Of a DNA stretch of 64,000 bases, positions 15,718 to 52,810 are shown one piece after another. The position numbers were made by a program, and so were the translations under genes. The stretch spans positions 194,001-258,000 of the forward strand of contig CAVYHE010000008.1 in NCBI GenBank assembly GCA_963768305.1, read 5' to 3'. Below the pieces are notes generated by a model that saw only the letters and a program-made list of their open reading frames with translations, was not told the origin of the DNA and made no database searches. This DNA comes from an uncultured bacterium. GTDB taxonomy: Bacteria > Margulisbacteria > WOR-1 > CAVSGV01. Each line of letters begins with the position of its first letter. Positions within the stretch are counted from its first letter, which is position 1.

Positions 15718-16911
15718 TTGAAAATGCAAAATGCAACCCTTGTAAAGCAAAATATTAAGGATTATTCTGCGCCAGAATATTTATTTGATGATTTAATTGA
15801 TTTTGAACAACCATTTTTCAATGACCAAATTATTACTTATATCGGAAATAAAAGAGCTTTGTTACAATTTATTAATGAAGGCATTGTCACTGTAAAGAAT
15901 CGTTTATCAAAAAAATCGTTGATTATTTTTGATGGTTTCTCAGGGAGTGGGGTAGTCTCTAGACTGTTGAAGTATCACGCAAAAGAACTCCACGTAAACG
16001 ACTTAGAAGATTATTGCGAGATCCTAAATAAATGCTATTTAAGCAATAAATCAGAAGTCGATTTTGATTTCATTAAGTCCAATATTGATTGGCTTAATAA
16101 GAACAAACTAATCTCACACAAAAAAGCCCCTTGTTTTATCCAGTCAAATTATGCGCCGGCAAATGATAATAACATCAAAAAAGGTGAGAGGGTTTTTTAC
16201 ACAAATAGAAATGCAAAAATAATCGACAATCTAAAATATTTGATCAATAAACATATTGATAGACAGAAAAGACATTTTTTCCTCGCCCCATTAATAGTAA
16301 AAGCATCAATAAACACCAATACTTCTGGGGTTTTTAAGGGGTTTCATAAGAAAGATGGCATAGGATGGTTTGGTGGGCGAGGCGAAAATGCTTTAACAAG
16401 AATAAAAAGAGAAATACATTTAGATGTGCCCGTTTTTTCGGAAAAAGAATGCAAAGTAATTATCACAAAAGAAGACGTTAATAAACTTGTTAAGTCCAAT
16501 AAAATACCAAAAGAATATGACCTGGCATATTTTGATCCCCCTTACAATCAACACCCTTATGGCTCCAACTATTTTATGCTTAATATTATTGCCAATGAAA
16601 AAAAAGCGATTGAAATACAGGATGGGGTTAGCGGTATAGCAAAAGACTGGAATAGATCTGCCTACAATAAGAAGCAGCAAGCCGAAGTTGCATTTGAAGA
16701 ATTAATTCAGAATACCAGGGCAAAATATATTTTAATATCATATAACAATGAAGGAATAATCGACCAATGCAAATTAAAAATGATTTTAGAGAAATATGGG
16801 AAGGTTGATGTTATTGAAAAGGAATATAATACATATAGAGGCTCGAGAAATCTAAATAATAGAAATATTAAAGTTAGGGAGATGTTGTGGATTTTGGAGA
16901 AAAATAAATAA
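15718..16911 (+). CDS. N6-adenine DNA methyltransferase, Dam/D12 class
   Basis: N-terminal YIGNKRALL motif, motif I FDGFSGSG and motif IV DPPYN, in alpha-class order. The gene is very AT-rich compared with its flanks. Confidence 0.8.
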   Translation: MKMQNATLVKQNIKDYSAPEYLFDDLIDFEQPFFNDQIITYIGNKRALLQFINEGIVTVKNRLSKKSLIIFDGFSGSGVVSRLLKYHAKELHVNDLEDYCEILNKCYLSNKSEVDFDFIKSNIDWLNKNKLISHKKAPCFIQSNYAPANDNNIKKGERVFYTNRNAKIIDNLKYLINKHIDRQKRHFFLAPLIVKASINTNTSGVFKGFHKKDGIGWFGGRGENALTRIKREIHLDVPVFSEKECKVIITKEDVNKLVKSNKIPKEYDLAYFDPPYNQHPYGSNYFMLNIIANEKKAIEIQDGVSGIAKDWNRSAYNKKQQAEVAFEELIQNTRAKYILISYNNEGIIDQCKLKMILEKYGKVDVIEKEYNTYRGSRNLNNRNIKVREMLWILEKNK

Positions 16912-16921
16912 AGGATGGATT

Positions 16922-17629
16922 ATGTCACATAAAAACCAATTAAGAAAACAAAGAGCTGGAACCATTATTAATGTTACCTCAAAGAAACAAGAAAGCGATA
17001 TTATTAAAGCACTTAGAGTTGTTGAGGATAAAATCAAAAAAGAGTTTCCGAAAATACAATTAGACTTTAAGAAGAATTGGTTATTAGATGAAATCATTAA
17101 AAGGCTTCATATCTTTTTTCCTGAAATTGAATTTCATTGTTATTCAAATAAAAGCAACATGAGGCCTGATGGTGGCATATTGTTTATAAAGAAAAGTGCG
17201 GATGGGGAACTCTTCCCAATTTTAATAACGGAGGCAAAAAATCAAGGGACAAATGACATTAGAAAGGCTGAGGGGAAAAGTAAGCAAGCTCTTGGAAATG
17301 CTATAGAAAGACTTGGAAAAAATGTTATTGGATTTAGAACCGCACTTTTAAATGAATCGATTTTTCCGTTTATTTGTTTTGGCTATGGATGTGATTTCTC
17401 AGAAAATGAAACAATTGTAGACAGAGTTGGGACAATCGCAATGTTTGGCAAACTGAACAAAACATACCTTCACAATGAAGGGGAAAACAGGTTTAATCGT
17501 GGGAGTTTTTATTTTCGAGAAAAGAGATGGTCGCCTGAAGAAATGTCAAAATTAATGTATGAAATAGCAAAAGGCAGTATCTATTATTATTTTTCTAAGT
17601 ATGGCCAAAAATCTTTCGAGAAGCTTTAA
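16922..17629 (+). CDS. EcoRI-family type II restriction endonuclease
   Basis: The segment RPDGGILFIKKSADGELFPILITEAKNQG...ALGNAIER...ESIFPF aligns closely with the EcoRI catalytic core (PD...EAK, GNAIERS). Immediately downstream of the methyltransferase. Confidence 0.8.
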   Translation: MSHKNQLRKQRAGTIINVTSKKQESDIIKALRVVEDKIKKEFPKIQLDFKKNWLLDEIIKRLHIFFPEIEFHCYSNKSNMRPDGGILFIKKSADGELFPILITEAKNQGTNDIRKAEGKSKQALGNAIERLGKNVIGFRTALLNESIFPFICFGYGCDFSENETIVDRVGTIAMFGKLNKTYLHNEGENRFNRGSFYFREKRWSPEEMSKLMYEIAKGSIYYYFSKYGQKSFEKL

Positions 17630-17731
17630 ATGATAAATGTGTGTTGTACAAGCTAACCATTTGAATTTTATTTAATTATTTTCCTTTCATTCTTCCCCAA
17701 TACAAATTTTATCTGATTAATATTATGTCAT

Positions 17732-17760
17732 TTGACTAACTTTTCCCGTTAACATAAAAT
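17732..17760 (+). promoter_or_regulatory. sigma-70-type promoter of ppsA (TTGACT-N17-TAAAAT)
   Basis: Canonical -35 and -10 hexamers with a 17-nt spacer, 19 nt upstream of the ppsA start. A GAGGTGG Shine-Dalgarno follows. Confidence 0.55.
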
Positions 17761-17778
17761 AACTTCAAGAGGTGGCCA

Positions 17779-20170
17779 ATGAGCGAATATAAATTTATCC
17801 GCTGGTTCGAAGAATTAGGTTCAAAGGACGTACCCGTTGTGGGAGGAAAGAACGCGAACCTCGGGGAAATGATAACGACGCTTAAGGATAAAGGAATACC
17901 GGTTCCCGACGGATTTGCCACCACTTCCGACGCCTACTGGAAATTCCTGGAATTCAACAAGATCGGCGACAAGATGAAGCCTCTCATAGGACAATACAAG
18001 AAAAACCCGAAGATGCTGGAAAAGACCGGAAAGGCCGTCCGAAATCTGTTCCTGGATTCAAAATTCCCGCCTGAAGTCAGTGAAGAAATATCGAAAGCCT
18101 ATCGGGAACTCTGCGGACGCTACAAATCGAAGGTCATTGATGTTGCAGTGCGAAGCAGCGCGACGGCCGAAGACCTTCCGGAAGCGAGTTTCGCGGGGCA
18201 GCAGGAAACCTTCCTGAACATTTCCGGAGAAAAAGAGCTGATCGACGCCTGCGTAAAATGCTACGCCTCTTTATTCACCGACAGGGCCATATCTTACCGC
18301 GAAGAAAAGAATTTTGACCATCTCAAGGTCGCGTTGTCTATCGGCGTGCAAAAGATGGTCCGTTCGGACCTTGCGGGATCGGGCGTCATGTTCTCGCTGG
18401 ACACGGACACCGGATTCAGGAAAGTCGTTATCATAAACGCATCGTGGGGGCTCGGGGAAAATATCGTGCAGGGGACCGTCAACCCGGACGAATACATAGT
18501 CTTTAAGCCGCTCCTTGATAAAAAAGAATTCAAGCCTGTAATTGAAAAGAACCTGGGAGAAAAAGAACAAAAGATGGTCTATGTGAAGAGCGGCGGCAAA
18601 AAAACGCTTAACATAAAGACCACGGAAAAGGAAAGGCTTTCCTACGTCCTCAATGAAGATGAAATTCTTCAACTGGCAAGATGGGCGGTGATCATCGAGG
18701 ACCATTACGGCCATCCGATGGACATGGAATGGGCAAAGGACGGCAAGACCGGCGATATTTTCATGGTCCAGGCAAGGGCCGAAACAGTTGAATCCAGGAA
18801 AGAAGCGTCCATATTCAAGGAATACCGCCTTCTGGGAACGGGAAAGAAACTGCTAGAGGGAATGGCGGTAGGCGAAGCCATCGTTGCCGGAAAAGCGCAG
18901 GTCCTTATGGACCCGAAGCAGATCGACAAGTTCGAGGACGGCTCCATACTTGTGACAACGATGACCGATCCAGACTGGGTCCCGATAATGAAAAAAGCTT
19001 CCGGGATTATCACTGACCACGGCGGAAGGACCTCGCACGCGGCCATCGTAAGCAGGGAGCTCGGAATACCTGCCATAGTCGGAACGGGGAACGCCACAAA
19101 GATCCTGAAGCACGGTCAGGAGATCACTCTTTCATGCGAGGGCGAAAAAGGATTCGTCTATGACGGATATGTCAAATATGAAGCCATCGACCTGGACCTG
19201 AAGGGCCTGCCGGAGACAAAAACGCAGATAATGATGAACATAGGCGATCCCGCTGCGGGCTTCAGGTGGTGGAAGCTACCAGCCAAGGGCATAGGACTTG
19301 CGAGGATGGAATTCATAATCACCAACCACATAAAGATACATCCGATGGCGCTCGTAAAATTCCGCCAGCTGAAGGATCTTAAAGCCAAGAAGCTCATACT
19401 CGAGCTCACCCGCGGGTTCAAGGACAAATCGGAATATTTCGTTGACCACCTCGCCAGGGGCATGGCGATGATAGGAGCTTCGCAATACCCCTACCCCGTT
19501 ATAGTAAGGATGAGCGACTTCAAGACCAATGAATATGCCGGCCTCATCGGCGGAGCGCAATTCGAAGCCCATGAAGAGAACCCGATGATAGGTTTCCGGG
19601 GAGCTTCCCGATATTATGACGATAAATACAGGGAAGGATTCGCTCTTGAATGCAGGGCGATCAAGAGAGTGCGCGAGCAGATGGGCATAACTAATGTGAT
19701 AGTGATGATCCCTTTTTGCAGGACCGTGGAAGAAGCCGACAAATGCCTTGCAGGAAATGGAGAAGAACGGATTAAAACGCGGCGAGAACGGCCTGCAAGT
19801 TTACGTGATGGCGGAGATACCTTCAAATATAATTCTGGCCGACCAGTTCTCGCAGAGGTTCGACGGTTTTTCCATCGGCTCGAACGACCTGACACAGCTT
19901 ACCCTGGGCATTGACAGGGATTCCGCGCAGCTGGCGAAGCTGTTCGATGAAAGGAACGAAGCGATAAAAAGATCGATAAGCAGTTTGATAAAAACAGCTC
20001 ATGAAAATAAAGTTAAGGTCGGGATCTGCGGGCAGGCTCCGAGCGATTATCCCGATTTCGCCGCGTTCCTGGTGGAAAAAGGCATCGATTCCATATCGCT
20101 TAATCCCGACAGCGTGATCGAGATCATCAAGACAGTGGCGGAAGCCGAAAAGAGGATCGGCCGGAACTGA
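17779..20170 (+). CDS. ppsA: phosphoenolpyruvate synthase (pyruvate, water dikinase) (frameshifted)
   Basis: Full-length PpsA homology, including the GGRTSHAAIVSRELGIPAIVG phosphohistidine region. The C-terminal PEP-utilising domain (ENGLKRGENGLQVYVMAEIPSN...) is in another frame. One extra base near 19748 (AAATGCC) splits the gene into tracked ORFs 17779-19914 and 19748-20170. Confidence 0.9.
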
Positions 20171-27940: not shown

Positions 27941-28038
27941 TATCGGGTAATTTTATCAAATTTGGCATGCATTCGCAATGAACCTGCCGCCGATACCTTG
28001 AAATATCTTGATTTTCTGATAAACTGATATTTAGAAAT

Positions 28039-28110
28039 GGCCCCATCGTCTAACGGTTAGGACATCAGCTTTTCAAGCTGACGATCGGGGTTCGATTCCC
28101 CGTGGGGCTA
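28039..28110 (+). tRNA. tRNA-Glu (anticodon TTC)
   Basis: Cloverleaf with anticodon loop TTTTCAA and T-loop TTCGATT. G1:U72 wobble at the acceptor end. Confidence 0.8.
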
Positions 28111-28209
28111 TTTAATTTAGGGGAGCTTCTTGGAATGAGGCTGAGAACTTCGATTTAATCGGAGGACCCGACAACTTGATCAGGATAATGCCTGCGAAAG
28201 GAGACAAAA

Positions 28210-29178
28210 GTGAAAAAAGAAAACCTGCCCGAACTTGGAAAGATACCTCCCGAATTTTTCGACCGCGTCATTTATCCACGGTTAGGCGCAAAAAATAAGA
28301 ACATCATGATCGGTCCGAGACATGGGGTCGATTACGGAGTATTAAAGGTCGGCTCAAAGTACATGGCGATGTCCACCGATCCATTCTTCATAGTCCCGCA
28401 ATTAGGCTTTATGAAAGCCGCGTGGTTCGCTTTTCATATTATATGCAGCGATGTCGCCGTATCGGGGCTGAAACCTGAATATCTGGCGATCGATCTTAAT
28501 CTGCCGCCCGAAATGACAGAAGCTCAGCTGGAAGAGATGTGGGAGACCGTGCACGAAGAATCAAAAAAGTACGACATTAGCATAATCACCGGTCATACCG
28601 CGCGATATACCGGATGTAATTATCCGATGGTCGGAGGAGCGACGGCGATAGCTATCGGCACAAAGAAAGAATTGCGCGGCCCTTTCAGGGTAAGGACCGG
28701 CGACCGGATAGTCATTACAAAAGGGCCGGCAATAGAAACGACCGGACTTTTAGCCGTCTTATTTCCCGACAGGTTCATCAGGGCAGGCGGAAAAGCTTTT
28801 CAGAAAGAAGCCGCTGGCGTTTTTGATCAGATGTCAGTGATGGATGATTGCGCGATAGCACGTGGATTGGAAGGGGTTCGAGTGATGCACGACGCGACCG
28901 AATGCGGCATATGGGGCGGGCTTTATGAAATGGCAAGAGCCGGAAATTACGGTCTGATGATAGAAGAAGAGCTGATCCCTATTCAGCCGGTGATCAAGAA
29001 AACAGCTGAACTGTTCGATTTTGACCCGTTCTGCGCAATAAGCGAGGGGACTTTACTGGCTATAGTTGATAAAAAAGAAACGGACAAGTTAATCTCAGCG
29101 TTCAGGAAAAATAGAATCTTAAGCGCGGTCGTCGGCGAAGTTGTCGAAAGTAAAAAAGGGATAAAGATCAAGAACTGA
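28210..29178 (+). CDS. AIR-synthase-related (PurM-like superfamily) protein of unknown role (HypE/ThiL-like)
   Basis: 322 aa with a PurM-like N-domain (GVDYGVLKVG...AMSTDPF) and C-domain. GTG start. Confidence 0.6.
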   Translation: MKKENLPELGKIPPEFFDRVIYPRLGAKNKNIMIGPRHGVDYGVLKVGSKYMAMSTDPFFIVPQLGFMKAAWFAFHIICSDVAVSGLKPEYLAIDLNLPPEMTEAQLEEMWETVHEESKKYDISIITGHTARYTGCNYPMVGGATAIAIGTKKELRGPFRVRTGDRIVITKGPAIETTGLLAVLFPDRFIRAGGKAFQKEAAGVFDQMSVMDDCAIARGLEGVRVMHDATECGIWGGLYEMARAGNYGLMIEEELIPIQPVIKKTAELFDFDPFCAISEGTLLAIVDKKETDKLISAFRKNRILSAVVGEVVESKKGIKIKN

Positions 29179-48341: not shown

Positions 48342-49159
48342 TTAGTCTTTGAGGGTTGCCCTGTAAAGCAGGTTTTTGGGGACTTTCAGCCGTTTCGCCA
48401 CTATTTTTACCGCGTTGCTCTTCGGAATGCCAGCTTCAATAAGATCGTCCACCAGCATCTCGGGGTCTATGCCTGCCTTCTCCGGCGCTTTCTCGCCTTC
48501 GATCACAAGAACAAATTCTCCTTTGGGTTTGACCTTTGAGAATTTATCGATCATCTGAGAAGCCGTGCCCCTCGCGATCTCCTCGAATTTTTTCGTCAAT
48601 TCCCTCGCAACACACATTTTCCTGTCCCTGAAACCGCTTTTAATATCTTCAAGGGTTTCCAGGAGGCGATGAGGTGCTTCATATAATATGATCGTCCTCT
48701 CTTCACGTGACAGCTTCTCGAAAATTCTTTTCTTGCGGAAGGCTTCACGGGAGGAAAACCCTCAAAAGCAAAGCTTTCGGTCTTAAGCCCTGAAACGGAA
48801 AGCGCGGCGATCAAAGCGGACGCACCAGGGATCACTTCGATCTTAATCCCTTCGCCTGCCGCTGCTTTAACCAGCTCCTGTCCGGGATCGGATATCCCTG
48901 GCATTCCCGCGTCAGAAACAAGAGCGACTTTTTTACCCTCTTTTAATTTATTGATGATGAAAGCCGTCTTTGTCTTCATGTTGAATTTATGGTATGAGGT
49001 CGTCGGCGTTTTTATATGATATTTATCAAGAAGTATTTTCGTATGGCGCGTGTCTTCGCAGGCGATAATATCCGCTGATCTGAGCGTTTCAACCGCACGG
49101 AAAGTGATGTCCTGAATATTGCCTATGGGGGTACCTACTATGTAGAGATATCCGGCCAT
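48342..49159 (-). CDS. rsmI: 16S rRNA (cytidine1402-2'-O)-methyltransferase RsmI (frameshifted)
   Basis: N-terminal tetrapyrrole-methylase fold (YIVGTPIGNIQDITFRAVETLRSADIIACEDTRHT). The conserved C-terminus (MCVARELTKKFEE...KGEFVLVIEG) is in another frame. The break is in an A-run near 48730 (ARKEFS versus expected RKKRIFEKLSREERTIILYEAPHRL). Confidence 0.8.
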
Positions 49160-49629: not shown

Positions 49630-50550
49630 CTACCATACTCTGTTCGCAGTAAAGACGTCAAGGTTCAAATATTTCATTGGGCTTATCGCAAAGCCGTTTT
49701 TCCTTATTTCATAATGGCAATGCGGCCCTGTTGCAAACCCCGTAGCCCCGACTTCCGATATTATCTGGCCTTTGATTACCCTCTGTCCCACGGAAACCAG
49801 AAGCTTCGAATTGTGTCCGTAAAGCGTCTGGATGCCGTAGCCGTGGTCCACCATAACCGTCTTTCCGAAGCCGCCTTTCCAGCCGGCAAAGCTGACGACA
49901 CCGTTCGCGGTTACCCTTACCGGATTCCCGTACCACGCGGTGATATCGATCCCCGTATGCATGCCTCTCCACGGAAAATATCTGTAGCCAAAGCCGGAAA
50001 CTATCCTTCCATATATAGGCCAGATGGACGGGGTTACCGCGAACCTGGTTTTCAATGAAGCCGCCGTTTCTCGAAGATTCGCAAGATTTTCGTCGGATTG
50101 CCTCACGCTTTCCTTAAGGTAGGATAATTCATTTGTTATTTTATCTATTTTATACGCCATTGTGTTGTCCAGAAGCGAAAGCTGGGCAGGTTCTTTTGTG
50201 GCCGCGAGCATCTGGTTTATGTTGTTGTTGTCCTTAAGTTTCAATCCCAGCAGTCTTCTCAGCTCCGAATCGCGGTCAACAAGTTCCTTTAAAGCTTTTT
50301 TCAACTGATTGACCTGACCGGAGAAGAAATCTATCCTGTCTTTCTGCTCTTCGTTCACCTGAAGCATTATGCGATAGTGGATCAATTTCCTGGTCATGAC
50401 GGAAGAATAAACTATGGAAGAGCCGATCATCATCAAAGAAACAAAAAATATGCCGATGAGAGTGTAGACGACCCACTCTTTCATCTTGAAGTTCACAACC
50501 CCCTTGTCGGAGTTGTGAGGCACTATCATAAACGTTATTTCTTTCGCCAT
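49630..50550 (-). CDS. M23-family peptidoglycan endopeptidase with N-terminal coiled-coil (EnvC/LytM-like)
   Basis: HTGIDITA...GYGIQTLYGHNS...GPHCHYEI zinc-site motifs. Transmembrane anchor followed by a long coiled-coil. Confidence 0.85.
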   Translation of the reverse strand: MAKEITFMIVPHNSDKGVVNFKMKEWVVYTLIGIFFVSLMMIGSSIVYSSVMTRKLIHYRIMLQVNEEQKDRIDFFSGQVNQLKKALKELVDRDSELRRLLGLKLKDNNNINQMLAATKEPAQLSLLDNTMAYKIDKITNELSYLKESVRQSDENLANLRETAASLKTRFAVTPSIWPIYGRIVSGFGYRYFPWRGMHTGIDITAWYGNPVRVTANGVVSFAGWKGGFGKTVMVDHGYGIQTLYGHNSKLLVSVGQRVIKGQIISEVGATGFATGPHCHYEIRKNGFAISPMKYLNLDVFTANRVW

Positions 50551-50610
50551 TATGGCAATATCCTAGCAAAGTATAATTGAAAGTCAATGGAAAATGACAA
50601 GTTCCATTTA

Positions 50611-50714
50611 TCGGGGCGGCGGGATTTGAACCCTGCTCGCGATTCTTGTCTGACTTCGCACAATATAAAAATCAAGGAAAGACAAAAATCGCTCGGACCT
50701 CCACACCCCAAAGG
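50611..50714 (-). other. tRNA-Pro(GGG) remnant: anticodon-loop/variable region plus intact T-arm and acceptor 3' half, split by a 62-nt hairpin insert (50634-50695)
   Basis: Positions 50611-50633 are identical to the 3' end of the intact tRNA at 50738. CCTTTGGGGTGTGGAGGTC (reverse complement) matches the anticodon-loop region. There is no 5' acceptor or D-arm. Confidence 0.6.
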
Positions 50715-50737
50715 ACAATTAATTAAGGTTCCATTCA

Positions 50738-50813
50738 TCGGGGCGGCGGGATTTGAACCCACGACCTCCACTACCCCAAAGTGGCGCCTTAGACCAAGCT
50801 GGGCCACGCCCCG
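50738..50813 (-). tRNA. tRNA-Pro (anticodon GGG)
   Basis: The reverse complement folds as a cloverleaf with acceptor CGGGGCG/CGCCCCG, anticodon loop TTGGGGT and T-loop TTCAAAT. Confidence 0.85.
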
Positions 50814-50820
50814 ATGAATG

Positions 50821-50964
50821 GATGGAGATTATAGTGATTTAAACTAATTCACGACCTCTACACCCCAAAGGCGAGAGAATTGTGTTTTACATTATACTTT
50901 TTATAATGCGATAGCAAACACAATTCTCGAGAAAGCGCCTTAGACCAAGCTGGGCCACGCCCCG
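50821..50964 (-). other. tRNA-Pro(GGG) remnant: intact 5' half (acceptor, D-arm), a 63-nt hairpin insert (50872-50934), anticodon-loop and degenerate 3' part
   Basis: Positions 50935-50964 are identical to the 5' half of the intact tRNA. The insert has terminal inverted repeats GAGAATTGTGTT/AACACAATTCTC and a nested palindrome CATTATAAAAAGTATAATG. The T-arm is destroyed. Confidence 0.6.
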
Positions 50965-50974
50965 ATAAAAGATA

Positions 50975-51601
50975 TTAATGGCTGAAATACTTTTTGACCG
51001 AACTGAACGCCTTGTTCCCCCGGCCGCTGAATATTTTAACAATATCCGCGCGATGTGTAAACAATCCTACCAGAAAATATAAAAAGCCGAATAAAACATA
51101 AGTGTTCGACATCCTAAAGCAATACATCAAGATGGGAAGGATCAGCATGCAGATAAGCGAGCTAATAATGAAATAATCCGTAACGATCGTAAAAAATATC
51201 CACCCCAATATTATGATCAGCGTTATGTAAGCGTTTATCCCGAACATCGCGCCTGTTGTAGTGGCCACGCCTTTGCCGCCGGAAAACCCCAGAAATACTG
51301 GAAAATCGTGGCCCAGGATAGCGGCAAGCCCCGCAAACCCCATCGAAATGTCAGTTCCTAATATTTTTTTTGCCAGAAGCACCGGTATCAGGCCTTTAAA
51401 AAGATCAAACGCGTACACAAGCGCTGCCAGGACAGGGCCTATAACGATAAGGACATTCGTCGCGCCCATATTGCCCGTGCCTTTTTGCCTTATGTCGATC
51501 CCGGAATTTATTTTCCCCGCAAGATAAGCGGATGGTATTGAGCCGAAAAGGTATGAAAAGAAAGTCAAGGCAGCCAATATGATCACATGATTATTGATCA
51601 A
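50975..51601 (-). CDS. plsY: glycerol-3-phosphate acyltransferase PlsY
   Basis: GTGNMGATN and GKGVAT motifs in a polytopic membrane protein. Confidence 0.88.
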   Translation of the reverse strand: MINNHVIILAALTFFSYLFGSIPSAYLAGKINSGIDIRQKGTGNMGATNVLIVIGPVLAALVYAFDLFKGLIPVLLAKKILGTDISMGFAGLAAILGHDFPVFLGFSGGKGVATTTGAMFGINAYITLIIILGWIFFTIVTDYFIISSLICMLILPILMYCFRMSNTYVLFGFLYFLVGLFTHRADIVKIFSGRGNKAFSSVKKYFSH

Positions 51602-52810
51602 GATTAAATTCTTTATGAAGCAGCTCCATCGCTTTCTTGGCCTGGTCCGCCTTTACGACGCAGGAGATCTTTATTTCCGAAGTGCTGATCATTTCCAGGT
51701 TTATTCCGTTCCTTCCAAGGACATCGAACATTGTTCCCGCGACCCCGGGCTTGGATATCATCCCAACGCCGACTATGGAAACTTTCGCGACCTTGTCATC
51801 GGAAATGACGCCTTCGGCGCCAAGCTCTGCTGCGACCACTTTTGTTACTTCGACCGCTTTTTTCATATCGGGCTTTGAGACCGTGAACGCCATGTCCGCC
51901 ATGGATCCGGATGAATGTATGCTCTGAATGATCATGTCGATATTTATTTTTTCGTTGCCCAGCGCTCTTGAATATCTTTGCGGCAATGCCGGGTTTGTCA
52001 GGTATCTTCAGTATGCCCGACTTTCGCTATATTCGCGTCGATAGCCACTCCCGATACCACATCTTTTTTTTCCATTTCAGATACCTCCTTGATATAAGTT
52101 CCTTCAACGTCAGACAAGCTGGAGCGAAGATGGATAACAAGCCCGTAATTCTTCGCGCATTCCACAGCCCTCGGATGCAGAACTTGAGCGCCCAGGCTCG
52201 CCAGCTCCAGCATTTCGTCATAAGATATGTATTTCAATTTCCTCGCATTCGTAACGATTCTCGGATCGGCGGTGTAAATACCGTCAACATCGGTGTATAT
52301 CTCGCAGACGTCCGCCTTTAAAGCCGATGCGATGACCACTGCTGATGTGTCAGACCCGCCCCTGCCAATTGTCGTAATGTCGCCGTGGCTGTCTATCCCT
52401 TGAAAACCGGTGACTACGACAATTTTCCCCTGGCTCAATTCGTGCTGTATTCTGTCCAGTTTAATATGAGTGATGCGGGCTTTGGACGGAATGTCCTCTG
52501 TGTGAACGCCTGCCTGCCATCCAGTTAATGATACCGCTTTAAAGCCAAGCGCATGTATCGCCATAGTAAGAAGTGCGGCAGAAACCTGCTCGCCCGTGGA
52601 AAGCAGCATGTCATATTCCCTTGGATCCGGGCTATCGGTTATCTGATTAAGAAGGCCGATAAGCTCGTCAGTTGTATCCCCCATGGCGGAAACGACCACG
52701 ACTACATTATTACCTGCGGCTTTCGCTGCAGTCACTCTGGCAGCGACACTTTTTATGCGCTCAACAGAGCCGACCGATGACCCGCCGTATTTTTGGACGA
52801 TCAATGCCAT
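51591..52810 (-). CDS. lysC: aspartate kinase (two frameshifts between kinase and ACT domains)
   Basis: N-terminal kinase domain (IVQKYGGSSVGS) in the 51998-52810 ORF and tandem ACT domains in the 51591-51986 ORF. The linker AKVGILKIPDKPGIAAKIF is in a third frame. Extra bases near 51990 (GGG run) and near 51965 (AAGA) split the gene. Confidence 0.85.

Follow-up and report, generated by a model that had tools for sequence, protein, structure and literature searches.

The subject of this analysis is a 354-nucleotide (nt) transfer RNA (tRNA)-Pro locus that lies between plsY and an M23 peptidase gene on contig CAVYHE010000008.1 of an uncultured bacterium of the Margulisbacteria. The stretch analysed, hereafter the window, is 64,000 nt long; all positions are window coordinates, and the locus lies entirely on the minus strand. 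An earlier note, made from the letters of the DNA alone, had described an intact tRNA flanked by two partial, interrupted copies, and every element of that arrangement was recovered in its place on the minus strand.

Anatomy of the locus

Three tRNA-Pro-related units, termed A, B and C, follow one another collinearly on the minus strand, in the order plsY, A, B, C and M23 peptidase gene (Table 1). Only B is called by ARAGORN or Rfam and A and C are left uncalled, in agreement with the earlier count of three related copies of which two are dead. The sequence of B is 100% identical in many relatives. Unit A opens with a relic 5′ part, E1, which is identical to tRNA positions 1-30 of B (30/30 by blastn) and lies in a repeat, D2, that spans 35 nt at 97%; a hairpin insert (I1), an anticodon piece (E2(A)) and a degenerate T arm follow. 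Unit C consists of a second anticodon piece (E2(C)), a hairpin insert (I2) and a relic 3′ part, E3, which matches B exactly throughout the T arm and acceptor 3′ end (23/23 by blastn; with the trailer included, repeat D3 covers 33 nt at 97%). E2(C) is identical to E2(A) at 18/19 positions and 79% identical to B. In E2(A) there are 4 nt rather than 5 between the loop and AGGTC, and all relics share a 1-nt loss, which indicates that they derive from GGG-type copies. A tRNA-Pro(UGG) hidden in A and C was also considered, as the loop can be read as TTTGGGG, and was rejected because the 5′ strand of the anticodon stem is missing. When A and C of the window are joined in silico the anticodon stem is broken and no complete cloverleaf results; the two units do not form one continuous copy.

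Leaders and trailers pair at two levels. The outer leader pairs with the discriminator A at 50611 and with the trailer at 50610..50607 (ATAAA), giving a longer outer acceptor helix, and the outer trailer is a copy of the B trailer with a G-to-A change that fits it to the A leader and reads as compensatory. In the inner leader, 50814 pairs with the discriminator A at 50738 and the other eight bases pair with 50737..50730, which extends the acceptor stem of B by 9 base pairs (bp). The spacer ACCTTAATTAATTGT beyond the inner trailer is probably a shortened remnant of the right flank of I1, as suggested by comparison with TGAAGGGAACATTAAGGAAAAACACAATTCCCTCG in L013 and L110 (L-numbers denote the related or viral loci that were fetched).

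Both inserts are AT-rich, with GC fractions of 0.30 (I1) and 0.40 (I2) against 0.47 for the window, and carry terminal inverted repeats, as had been described previously; each has a 13-bp stem. The I1 stem is perfect (50928..50916 with 50887..50875) and has an inner 8-bp palindrome; its loop contains TTGCTA followed by TATAAT/TAATGT, and the insert folds at -24.1 kcal/mol (z = -5.2). The I2 stem (50692..50680 with 50651..50639) includes one G.U pair, and its fold of -20.1 kcal/mol (z = -1.75) is insignificant on its own sequence, the stem being backed by covariation.

Table 1. Positions of the parts of the tRNA-Pro(GGG) locus, its flanking genes and the nuclease genes found beside the same tRNA in relatives.
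Feature	Position	Strand	Basis
plsY (glycerol-3-phosphate acyltransferase), upstream of the locus	50975..51601	-	Pfam PF02660, E 2e-44
Promoter-like TTTACA-17-TAAAAT inside plsY 3′ end	51061..51033	-	Promoter scan
Outer leader TTTAT	50965..50969	-	12-nt inverted repeat (repeat I5), 100% complementary; whole-region fold
E1, relic 5′ part of outer copy (acceptor 5′ strand, D arm, anticodon-stem start)	50964..50935	-	blastn
I1, 63-nt hairpin insert in A	50934..50872	-	Fold, covariation, nested loci in relatives
E2(A), relic anticodon loop, 3′ anticodon stem, variable loop, T-stem start; CCTTTGGGGTGTAGAGGTCGTG	50871..50850	-	Repeat D1
Putative degenerate T arm of A, GTGAATTAGTTTAAATCAC	50852..50834	-	Read from sequence, no statistical test
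TATAAT box after the degenerate T arm of A	50833..50828	-	Read from sequence
Inner leader TCCATTCAT	50814..50822	-	16-nt inverted repeat (repeat I1), 100% complementary
B, live tRNA-Pro(GGG), 76 nt, without encoded CCA	50813..50738	-	ARAGORN; Rfam tRNA 55.4 bits
Inner trailer TGAATGGA and spacer ACCTTAATTAATTGT	50715..50737	-	Comparison with L013/L110
E2(C), second relic anticodon/variable piece; CCTTTGGGGTGTGGAGGTC	50714..50696	-	Repeat family D1
I2, 62-nt hairpin insert in C, between tRNA positions 48 and 51	50695..50634	-	
E3, relic T arm and acceptor 3′ strand with discriminator	50633..50611	-	Repeat D3; blastn
Outer trailer TAAATGGAAC	50601..50610	-	Read from sequence; repeat analysis
Promoter-like TTGACT-16-TAGGAT of M23 gene, 3′ limit of the locus	50560..50587	-	Promoter scan; kept in relatives
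M23 peptidase gene, downstream	49630..50550	-	Pfam PF01551
GIY-YIG open reading frames (ORFs) of related loci	L015:2237-2476, L017:849-1094, L021:5740-5985, L022:2787-3032		

The nested plan in related loci

The gene order plsY-tRNA-M23-bactofilin is kept among relatives, in which the intergenic length ranges from 134 to 1040 nt and live tRNAs were called using ARAGORN. The same nested plan is present in at least 12 related loci, with a depth of up to three shells. In its full form, the 5′ part comprises the outer leader, tRNA positions 1-27, the I1 left flank, the inner leader, the live tRNA and the inner trailer; the 3′ part comprises the I1 right flank, tRNA positions 30-48, I2, tRNA positions 51-76 and the outer trailer. 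One relative holds a lone tRNA (L007) and another a tRNA with one decayed 3′ relic (L005). In L002, whose PlsY is 85% identical to that of the window, the first unit is an A-like relic (tRNA positions 1-30, I1 and an anticodon piece), the second is an I1 split by a complete live tRNA-Pro(GGG) and followed by an anticodon piece, I2 and a 3′ end, and the last is an older 3′ relic. We also see a live tRNA in the I1 loop of an older copy in L012, L013, L110, L024, L050/L088, L051, L093 and L098, and variants of the plan in L014, L018, L034, L109 and L111. L050 and L088 come from one sample and have 46 nt in common at their ends, and together they appear to be a single locus with three 5′ shells, cut at the repeat.

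Since a live tRNA occupies the I1 loop in several relatives, I1 represents the two flanks, left and right, of a tRNA cassette, now joined. Comparison of the interrupted with the uninterrupted forms shows that window I1 equals left flank plus right flank, as though a stretch with the tRNA and its leader had dropped out between two TAT triplets. A of the window is orthologous to the relic copy in L002, L014 and L109, and B with C is a nest minus its own 5′ shell and most of the I1 right flank. The nested plan appears to be ancestral to a Margulisbacteria-like clade and to have been inherited at the plsY-M23 site. The tandem layout suggested earlier therefore stands in so far as the copies are collinear, but the arrangement is a nested one, with A as a 5′ shell and C as a 3′ shell around B, and with the live tRNA inside I1 in relatives.

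As a check on the assembly, an independent Logan assembly (L001, run ERR10755942) was found to run from the 3′ end of B through C to the M23 gene, with two small indels. The presence of this part in the assembly of another sequencing run argues that the locus is not an assembly artefact, which the earlier note had considered, and the same architecture is found in many other assemblies, including a complete chromosome (L014) and a single-cell genome (L024). Elsewhere in the window, an aspartate kinase gene (51591-52810, minus strand) is split into ORFs of 270 and 131 amino acids in different frames, where relatives have a single protein of 405 amino acids, and a TP_methylase gene (48342-49159, minus strand) is split into ORFs of 187 and 91 amino acids, where relatives have one of 272-276. 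These are either pseudogenes or indel errors of assembly, a choice that bears on the 1-nt details of the tRNA locus. Short GC-rich palindromes, for example CCGCCTCTGGCGG, CCTGCCTGCCGGCAGG and GAAGCCTTGGCGAAG, also recur in the D-loops and T-loops of dead tRNA copies, or beside such copies, in several species (L012, L018, L110, L111, L002), and are candidates for a REP-like family.

L093 (5600-5900, minus strand) holds a full nest that has tRNA-Leu(CAA) and tRNA-Leu(CAG) as its neighbours in place of plsY and M23. Removing both inserts from its outer copy in silico leaves a perfect tRNA-Pro(GGG) cloverleaf, the only locus at which joining the pieces does so, and its outer acceptor (CGGAGCG/CGCTCCG) and anticodon stem (TCACC/GGTGA) differ from those of the inner tRNA by compensatory changes. 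In L013 and L110 the outer acceptor (CGGGGTG/CACCCCG) also differs from the inner one (CGGGGCG/CGCCCCG). The insert positions, moreover, resemble those of non-canonical archaeal introns. These observations would fit an outer copy that is a real interrupted gene, from whose RNA I1 (with the inner tRNA) and I2 are removed to yield a second functional tRNA-Pro. However, the window, L110 and L050 have an outer anticodon stem that is unable to form; the outer copies of L012, L013, L024, L051, L098 and L111 are either cut short or have additional hairpins in the D-loop or T-loop; and A and C of the window, as noted, are not one continuous copy. No bulge-helix-bulge (3-4-3) could be drawn by hand at the I1 or I2 junctions, and the Rfam scan gave no intron family. 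The host, too, is bacterial: Pfam identifies QueA, bacterial TGT, PlsY, M23 peptidase, bactofilin and LeuRS among the window genes, and the nearest named PlsY homologues, as well as the genomes sharing the tRNA 5′ half, belong to Candidatus Margulisiibacteriota, Saganbacteria or WOR-1. One PlsY homologue (P0001) is 99% identical to that of the window; a first scan of genome contigs with PlsY peptides gave no match. As the host genes are bacterial, archaeal-type splicing is not expected. Functional interrupted genes are thus unlikely here, although L093-like loci may be an exception, and for the outer copy of the window such a role seems highly improbable.

Two intron types were rejected in their own right. 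An archaeal intron or split tRNA, prompted by the CCA-less, GC-rich tRNAs, was discarded on the bacterial Pfam genes and the lack of a drawable bulge-helix-bulge motif. A group I intron, with a ribozyme fold usually exceeding 200 nt and located in the anticodon loop, does not match inserts of only 62-63 nt at positions 27/30 and 48/51 that give no Rfam intron family.

Folding, constraint and copy number

The whole region (386 nt) folds at -146 kcal/mol (z = -6.7). In this fold A contributes its leader and acceptor 5′ strand, and C its acceptor 3′ strand and trailer, to an outer helix that surrounds the I1 hairpin, the B cloverleaf with its 9-bp extension, and the I2 hairpin. The same nested structure, with outer helix, I1 stem and cloverleaf, emerges independently from RNAalifold.

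The I1 stem, the I2 stem and the leader-trailer extension are each maintained by compensatory substitutions. For the I1 stem, 96% of cells are paired and four pairs are changed on both sides, with a score (0.179 vs 0.113) that 0 of 500 shuffles reach; for the I2 stem, 98% are paired and 6 of the 13 pairs are changed on both sides, again with 0 of 500 shuffles reaching the score. The extension of the live tRNA, compared over 14 loci, is 94% paired; changes on both sides affect 45 cells, a single position may show as many as four pair types, and 0/500 shuffles reach the score. It is 8-9 bp long in most nest-lineage loci and 6-7 bp in L024, L051 and L093; in outgroups it is mostly 0-2 bp, with 5-12 bp in L020, L023, L025 and L026. 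Among the seven tRNAs of the window that were compared, the other six lack it. Mismatches in I2, read on the tRNA strand, comprise nine G.T and no A.C, which favours pairing at the level of RNA.

Sequence conservation was compared with that at 4-fold sites of plsY, where the window is 0.70 identical to L002, 0.47 to L109 and 0.51 to L110. Against the same three loci, I1 plus E2 is 0.82-0.90 identical and I2 is 0.77-0.87 identical, and the loop sequences of both inserts are likewise conserved. Identities of 77-90%, as against 47-70% at synonymous sites, indicate that the relics are constrained and are not freely decaying. The decay assumed previously is thus contradicted, as the inserts are orthologous, are conserved above synonymous sites and keep their stems by compensatory change.

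The architecture is orthologous across species, and I1 and I2 are single-copy. Neither insert has a second copy within the 64-kb window, and among 136 fetched loci both are found at tRNA-Pro sites only, I2 as one copy per locus and confined to nested loci. A degenerate I1 pattern gave 74 matches in metagenomes, of which five were real, all of these linked to tRNA-Pro; the I1 and I2 patterns gave no true match in a viral collection, and blastn of the region against phage records returned ordinary tRNA-Pro genes only. The earlier note took the inserts for miniature inverted-repeat elements and looked to BLAST for further copies. None exists in the window, and uniqueness of the inserts is the outcome that it had itself named as contrary to its reading. 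The inserts as miniature mobile repeats are not supported by these data.

There is, nonetheless, some insertion-like character in I2, which is bracketed by the direct repeats CGAGC (50695..50691) and GCGAGC (50640..50635), and for which L098 provides an empty site (GATC-GCGAGC-AGGGTTC). These flanking repeats and the empty site suggest that I2 either began as an insertion or can be removed by deletion between the repeats. No clear target-site duplication is visible for I1. That the inserts are insertions thus holds in part, for I2, but mobile-repeat behaviour is seen for neither.

Such features of I2, together with the three collinear copies, the terminal inverted repeats of both inserts and a duplicated leader and 5′ half in L109 and L111, could be explained if tRNA-Pro had been triplicated in tandem and miniature inverted-repeat elements had entered two of the copies, which would now be decaying neutrally. 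We consider this distinctly unlikely, since the inserts are single in the window and elsewhere occur at this tRNA only, remain 77-90% identical between orthologues when synonymous sites have fallen to 47-70%, have covarying stems, and, in the case of I1, surround a live tRNA in relatives.

Mobile DNA at tRNA-Pro(GGG), and the origin and meaning of the shells

From the sequences of relatives and viruses, this tRNA is clearly a target of mobile DNA. In L015, L017, L021 and L022, ORFs of 79-81 amino acids that encode only the catalytic domain of a GIY-YIG nuclease lie directly beside tRNA-Pro(GGG), bounded by short hairpins (TCCTCC...GGAGGA, TTCTCC...GGAGAA) and with dead 5′ or 3′ tRNA fragments around them; in L022 a relic running from the T-loop to the 3′ end follows the ORF. 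Double-hairpin relics occupy D-loops or T-loops of dead copies in relatives. Cargo ORFs are found between tRNA-Pro pieces in L109 (2418-2954) and L021 (4671-5585), the former separating the live tRNA from a relic of positions 27-76. No mobility function was recognised among these locus ORFs: the 178-amino-acid ORF of L109 had no hit, the 304-amino-acid ORF of L021 is a DUF5677 protein, and L112 gave sigma-70 region 2 only. Both cargo ORFs contain an R-x4-H motif (VRNAVCH in L109, LRSHAIH in L021) that by eye alone resembles HEPN RNases; Pfam did not assign a HEPN family to either, returning no hit for L109 and DUF5677 for L021. In L021 (4450-6250, minus strand) tRNA positions 1-16 and a double hairpin recur in inverted orientation some 1.5 kb downstream of the direct copy. 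The two copies flank the GIY-YIG gene, the live tRNA and the DUF5677 ORF, and the whole resembles an element whose long terminal inverted repeats contain a piece of tRNA.

Viral sequences tell of a further kind of visitor. The T arm and 3′ end of tRNA-Pro are present as an attP-like piece on ten viral contigs, in one of which (L122:7019-8285) a tyrosine integrase adjoins tRNA positions 54-76, and a 42.7-kb provirus (L114 and L117) has a tRNA-Pro 3′ piece at both ends. Several of the viral contigs are GC-rich, and their hosts may be of other phyla. No integrase was found in the window flanks (by Pfam) or in or beside the examined nested loci of relatives; integrases were seen only on separate viral contigs.

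These viral pieces lend some weight to the second origin that had been proposed, in which the partial copies are attachment (att) scars, attL and attR, of tyrosine-integrase elements that have lost their interior, and the inserts are leftover element ends. The 3′ part of the tRNA is indeed repeated downstream of the live gene (E3, with the same trailer), older 3′ relics are present in relatives, and the L109 ORF sits between a live tRNA and a relic of positions 27-76. The oldest 3′ relics begin exactly at the anticodon loop, and Williams is said to have described, in 2002, sublocations of att sites within tRNA genes, those in the anticodon loop reportedly being usual. Integration that restores the 3′ end, however, leaves 3′ relics only, whereas here the 5′ half (E1, upstream) and the anticodon piece are duplicated as well and a live tRNA stands inside I1. 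The two flanks of I1 complement each other and covary, the examined nested loci lack an integrase, and the viral matches possibly stem from other hosts. The att-site proposal is thus borne out as to the tRNA being targeted and its 3′ end being carried by viruses, but does not account for the 5′ relics or the live gene in I1, and as a whole we regard it as unlikely. Integrase scars explain the 3′ relics and are insufficient for the remainder, and we infer that repeated cassette insertion with local duplication and deletion fits better.

The reading we favour, with a probability of roughly 60%, is that of a conserved nested relic locus, in which the live tRNA-Pro(GGG) is enclosed by the 5′ (A) and 3′ (C) parts of an older, inactivated copy, all within one structured precursor. 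The shells would go back to insertions into the resident gene, at positions 26/27-30 and 48-51, of cassettes that brought a replacement tRNA or of small cassettes of other kinds, with local duplication and deletion coming afterwards. The process was probably driven by the integrase phages and the hairpin-bounded GIY-YIG cassettes that are seen at this tRNA in relatives. In the window, I1 of A would have lost its tRNA, the flanks being joined across TAT...TAT, and the shell around B would have lost its 5′ part. Transcription as a single precursor and a role as a processing stalk are inferred from the sequence comparisons: the whole stretch would be co-transcribed from the promoter-like site in the plsY 3′ end and/or from the TTGCTA...TAATGT/TATAAT box in I1. 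This candidate I1 promoter, read as TTGCTA-15-TATAAT or TTGCTA-17-TAATGT, is kept in L002, L109 and L014. The site within plsY falls in the gene's conserved coding end, FTHRxDIVxI, and relatives have it at the corresponding place. The relic halves, which are identical to parts of the live tRNA and able to mispair with it, would be locked in helices of their own. With the leader-trailer extension, the relic helices would make up an extended stalk, to be cut by RNase P, RNase Z and possibly RNase III so as to free tRNA-Pro(GGG). Such a role would explain why pairing is under selection in each of the shells.

A number of points weigh against this reading. The I1 box was not scored by the promoter scan, owing to its spacer of 15, and no terminator was found at the locus. 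A promoter inside I1 would start transcription 3′ of the 5′ arm, so that it cannot alone explain conservation of the I1 stem. The covariation alignments were built by hand from short anchored pieces, and their sequences are phylogenetically related. The duplicated leader and 5′ half of L109 and L111 mean that tandem duplication fits as well as nesting there. There is no nuclease, integrase or transposase near the window locus, so its origin is deduced from other genomes. Finally, I1 mismatches lack strand asymmetry (12 G.T vs 7 A.C), which leaves room for selection on a DNA hairpin.

This last point is shared by the idea that the hairpins act as single-stranded DNA sites of recombination or transposition, in the manner of integron attC sites or IS200/IS605 ends, which would also be consistent with a structure kept while sequence varies, with the short hairpins that bound GIY-YIG and other ORF cassettes in relatives, and with the double hairpins in D- and T-loops of dead copies. 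We find it very unlikely. None of the loci shows a recombinase or HUH transposase, the two inserts keep to a single orthologous site, the I2 mismatches are all G.T on the tRNA strand, and the loop sequences are conserved too.

A more speculative proposal, doubtful in our view, is that a new kind of selfish element is at work: a hairpin-bounded cassette that homes to a fixed position in tRNA-Pro(GGG) and carries a replacement tRNA, so that each invasion buries the prior gene as a shell. The newest copy may then be indispensable to the host, and co-transcription with the live tRNA would be what keeps the shells paired. In a bolder version, some outer copies, such as that of L093, may be matured into tRNA by an unrecognised bacterial pathway.

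Two further observations concern other parts of the window. A TPP riboswitch (28038-28219, plus strand), which at 55.2 bits in Rfam is just over the gathering score, begins at the last bases of tRNA-Glu(UUC). The stretch 16001-18000 is low in GC (0.33 vs about 0.47 elsewhere).

In kind, the locus is one of tRNA gene relics at an insertion hotspot, and in at least one defining test each it departs from att-site fragments, disrupted archaeal tRNAs and miniature inverted-repeat elements. Partial tRNA genes left by integrative elements are known from the tycheposons of Prochlorococcus (bioRxiv 10.1101/2020.12.28.424599), and tRNA fragments from integrative elements have been discussed elsewhere (bioRxiv 10.1101/2022.07.05.498093). 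The likeness lies in partial copies beside a live one, at a hotspot, with phage-like contigs that carry the same 3′ end, once by an integrase; unlike those fragments, the window locus has upstream 5′ relics, its relics are conserved with covarying helices, a live gene lies within the hairpin that interrupts an older copy, and no element or integrase stands between the copies. Disrupted archaeal tRNA genes include multiple-intron, split and permuted forms with bulge-helix-bulge junctions (PMC3978253, PMC4033280; for a Caldiarchaeum model, PMC3293823). They are alike in hairpin interruptions at the D-loop, 26/27-30, T stem and T-loop, in leader-trailer pairing and in the L093 outer copy, whereas here the host is bacterial, no bulge-helix-bulge can be drawn by hand, a complete tRNA lies inside the insert, and the window and most relatives have a degenerate outer anticodon arm. 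Miniature inverted-repeat elements are similarly small and AT-rich with terminal inverted repeats, and I2 adds a direct repeat of 5-6 bp and an empty-site allele, but the present inserts occur once per examined region at the same orthologous site, with stems and loops under purifying selection.

The leader-trailer stalks of bacterial ribosomal RNA (rRNA) operons are substrates of RNase III. They too are long upstream-downstream helices around a stable RNA gene that are maintained by covariation; here, by contrast, the helix encloses a tRNA and is made partly of relic tRNA halves, and its cleavage is only proposed. SegB of phage T4 is a GIY-YIG homing endonuclease encoded in a tRNA gene cluster (PMC2330249). 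The GIY-YIG genes beside the tRNA in four related loci resemble it, and the dead fragments would fit endonuclease-driven replacement; unlike SegB, these proteins have 79-81 amino acids and the catalytic domain only, their cleavage is putative, and the window has no such gene. Full-text literature searches turned up no account of a tRNA gene in bacteria that sits within conserved relics of its own, or that is replaced by itself.

Loci such as this one are bound to confuse tRNA annotation and can break assemblies, as seems to have happened in L050/L088. Partial tRNA genes in bacteria are usually taken as passive scars of integration, whereas here they are concentric, deeply conserved and maintained as helices around the only live copy. 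If the relics belong to a structured precursor, the organism would have a bacterial pre-tRNA with an rRNA-like processing stalk made of dead tRNA halves; if it was repeated self-replacement that produced the shells, they would represent a new strategy of selfish elements. The locus is also a parallel, in bacteria, to the disrupted tRNA genes known from archaea, and could inform the debate on the origin of interrupted and split tRNA genes.

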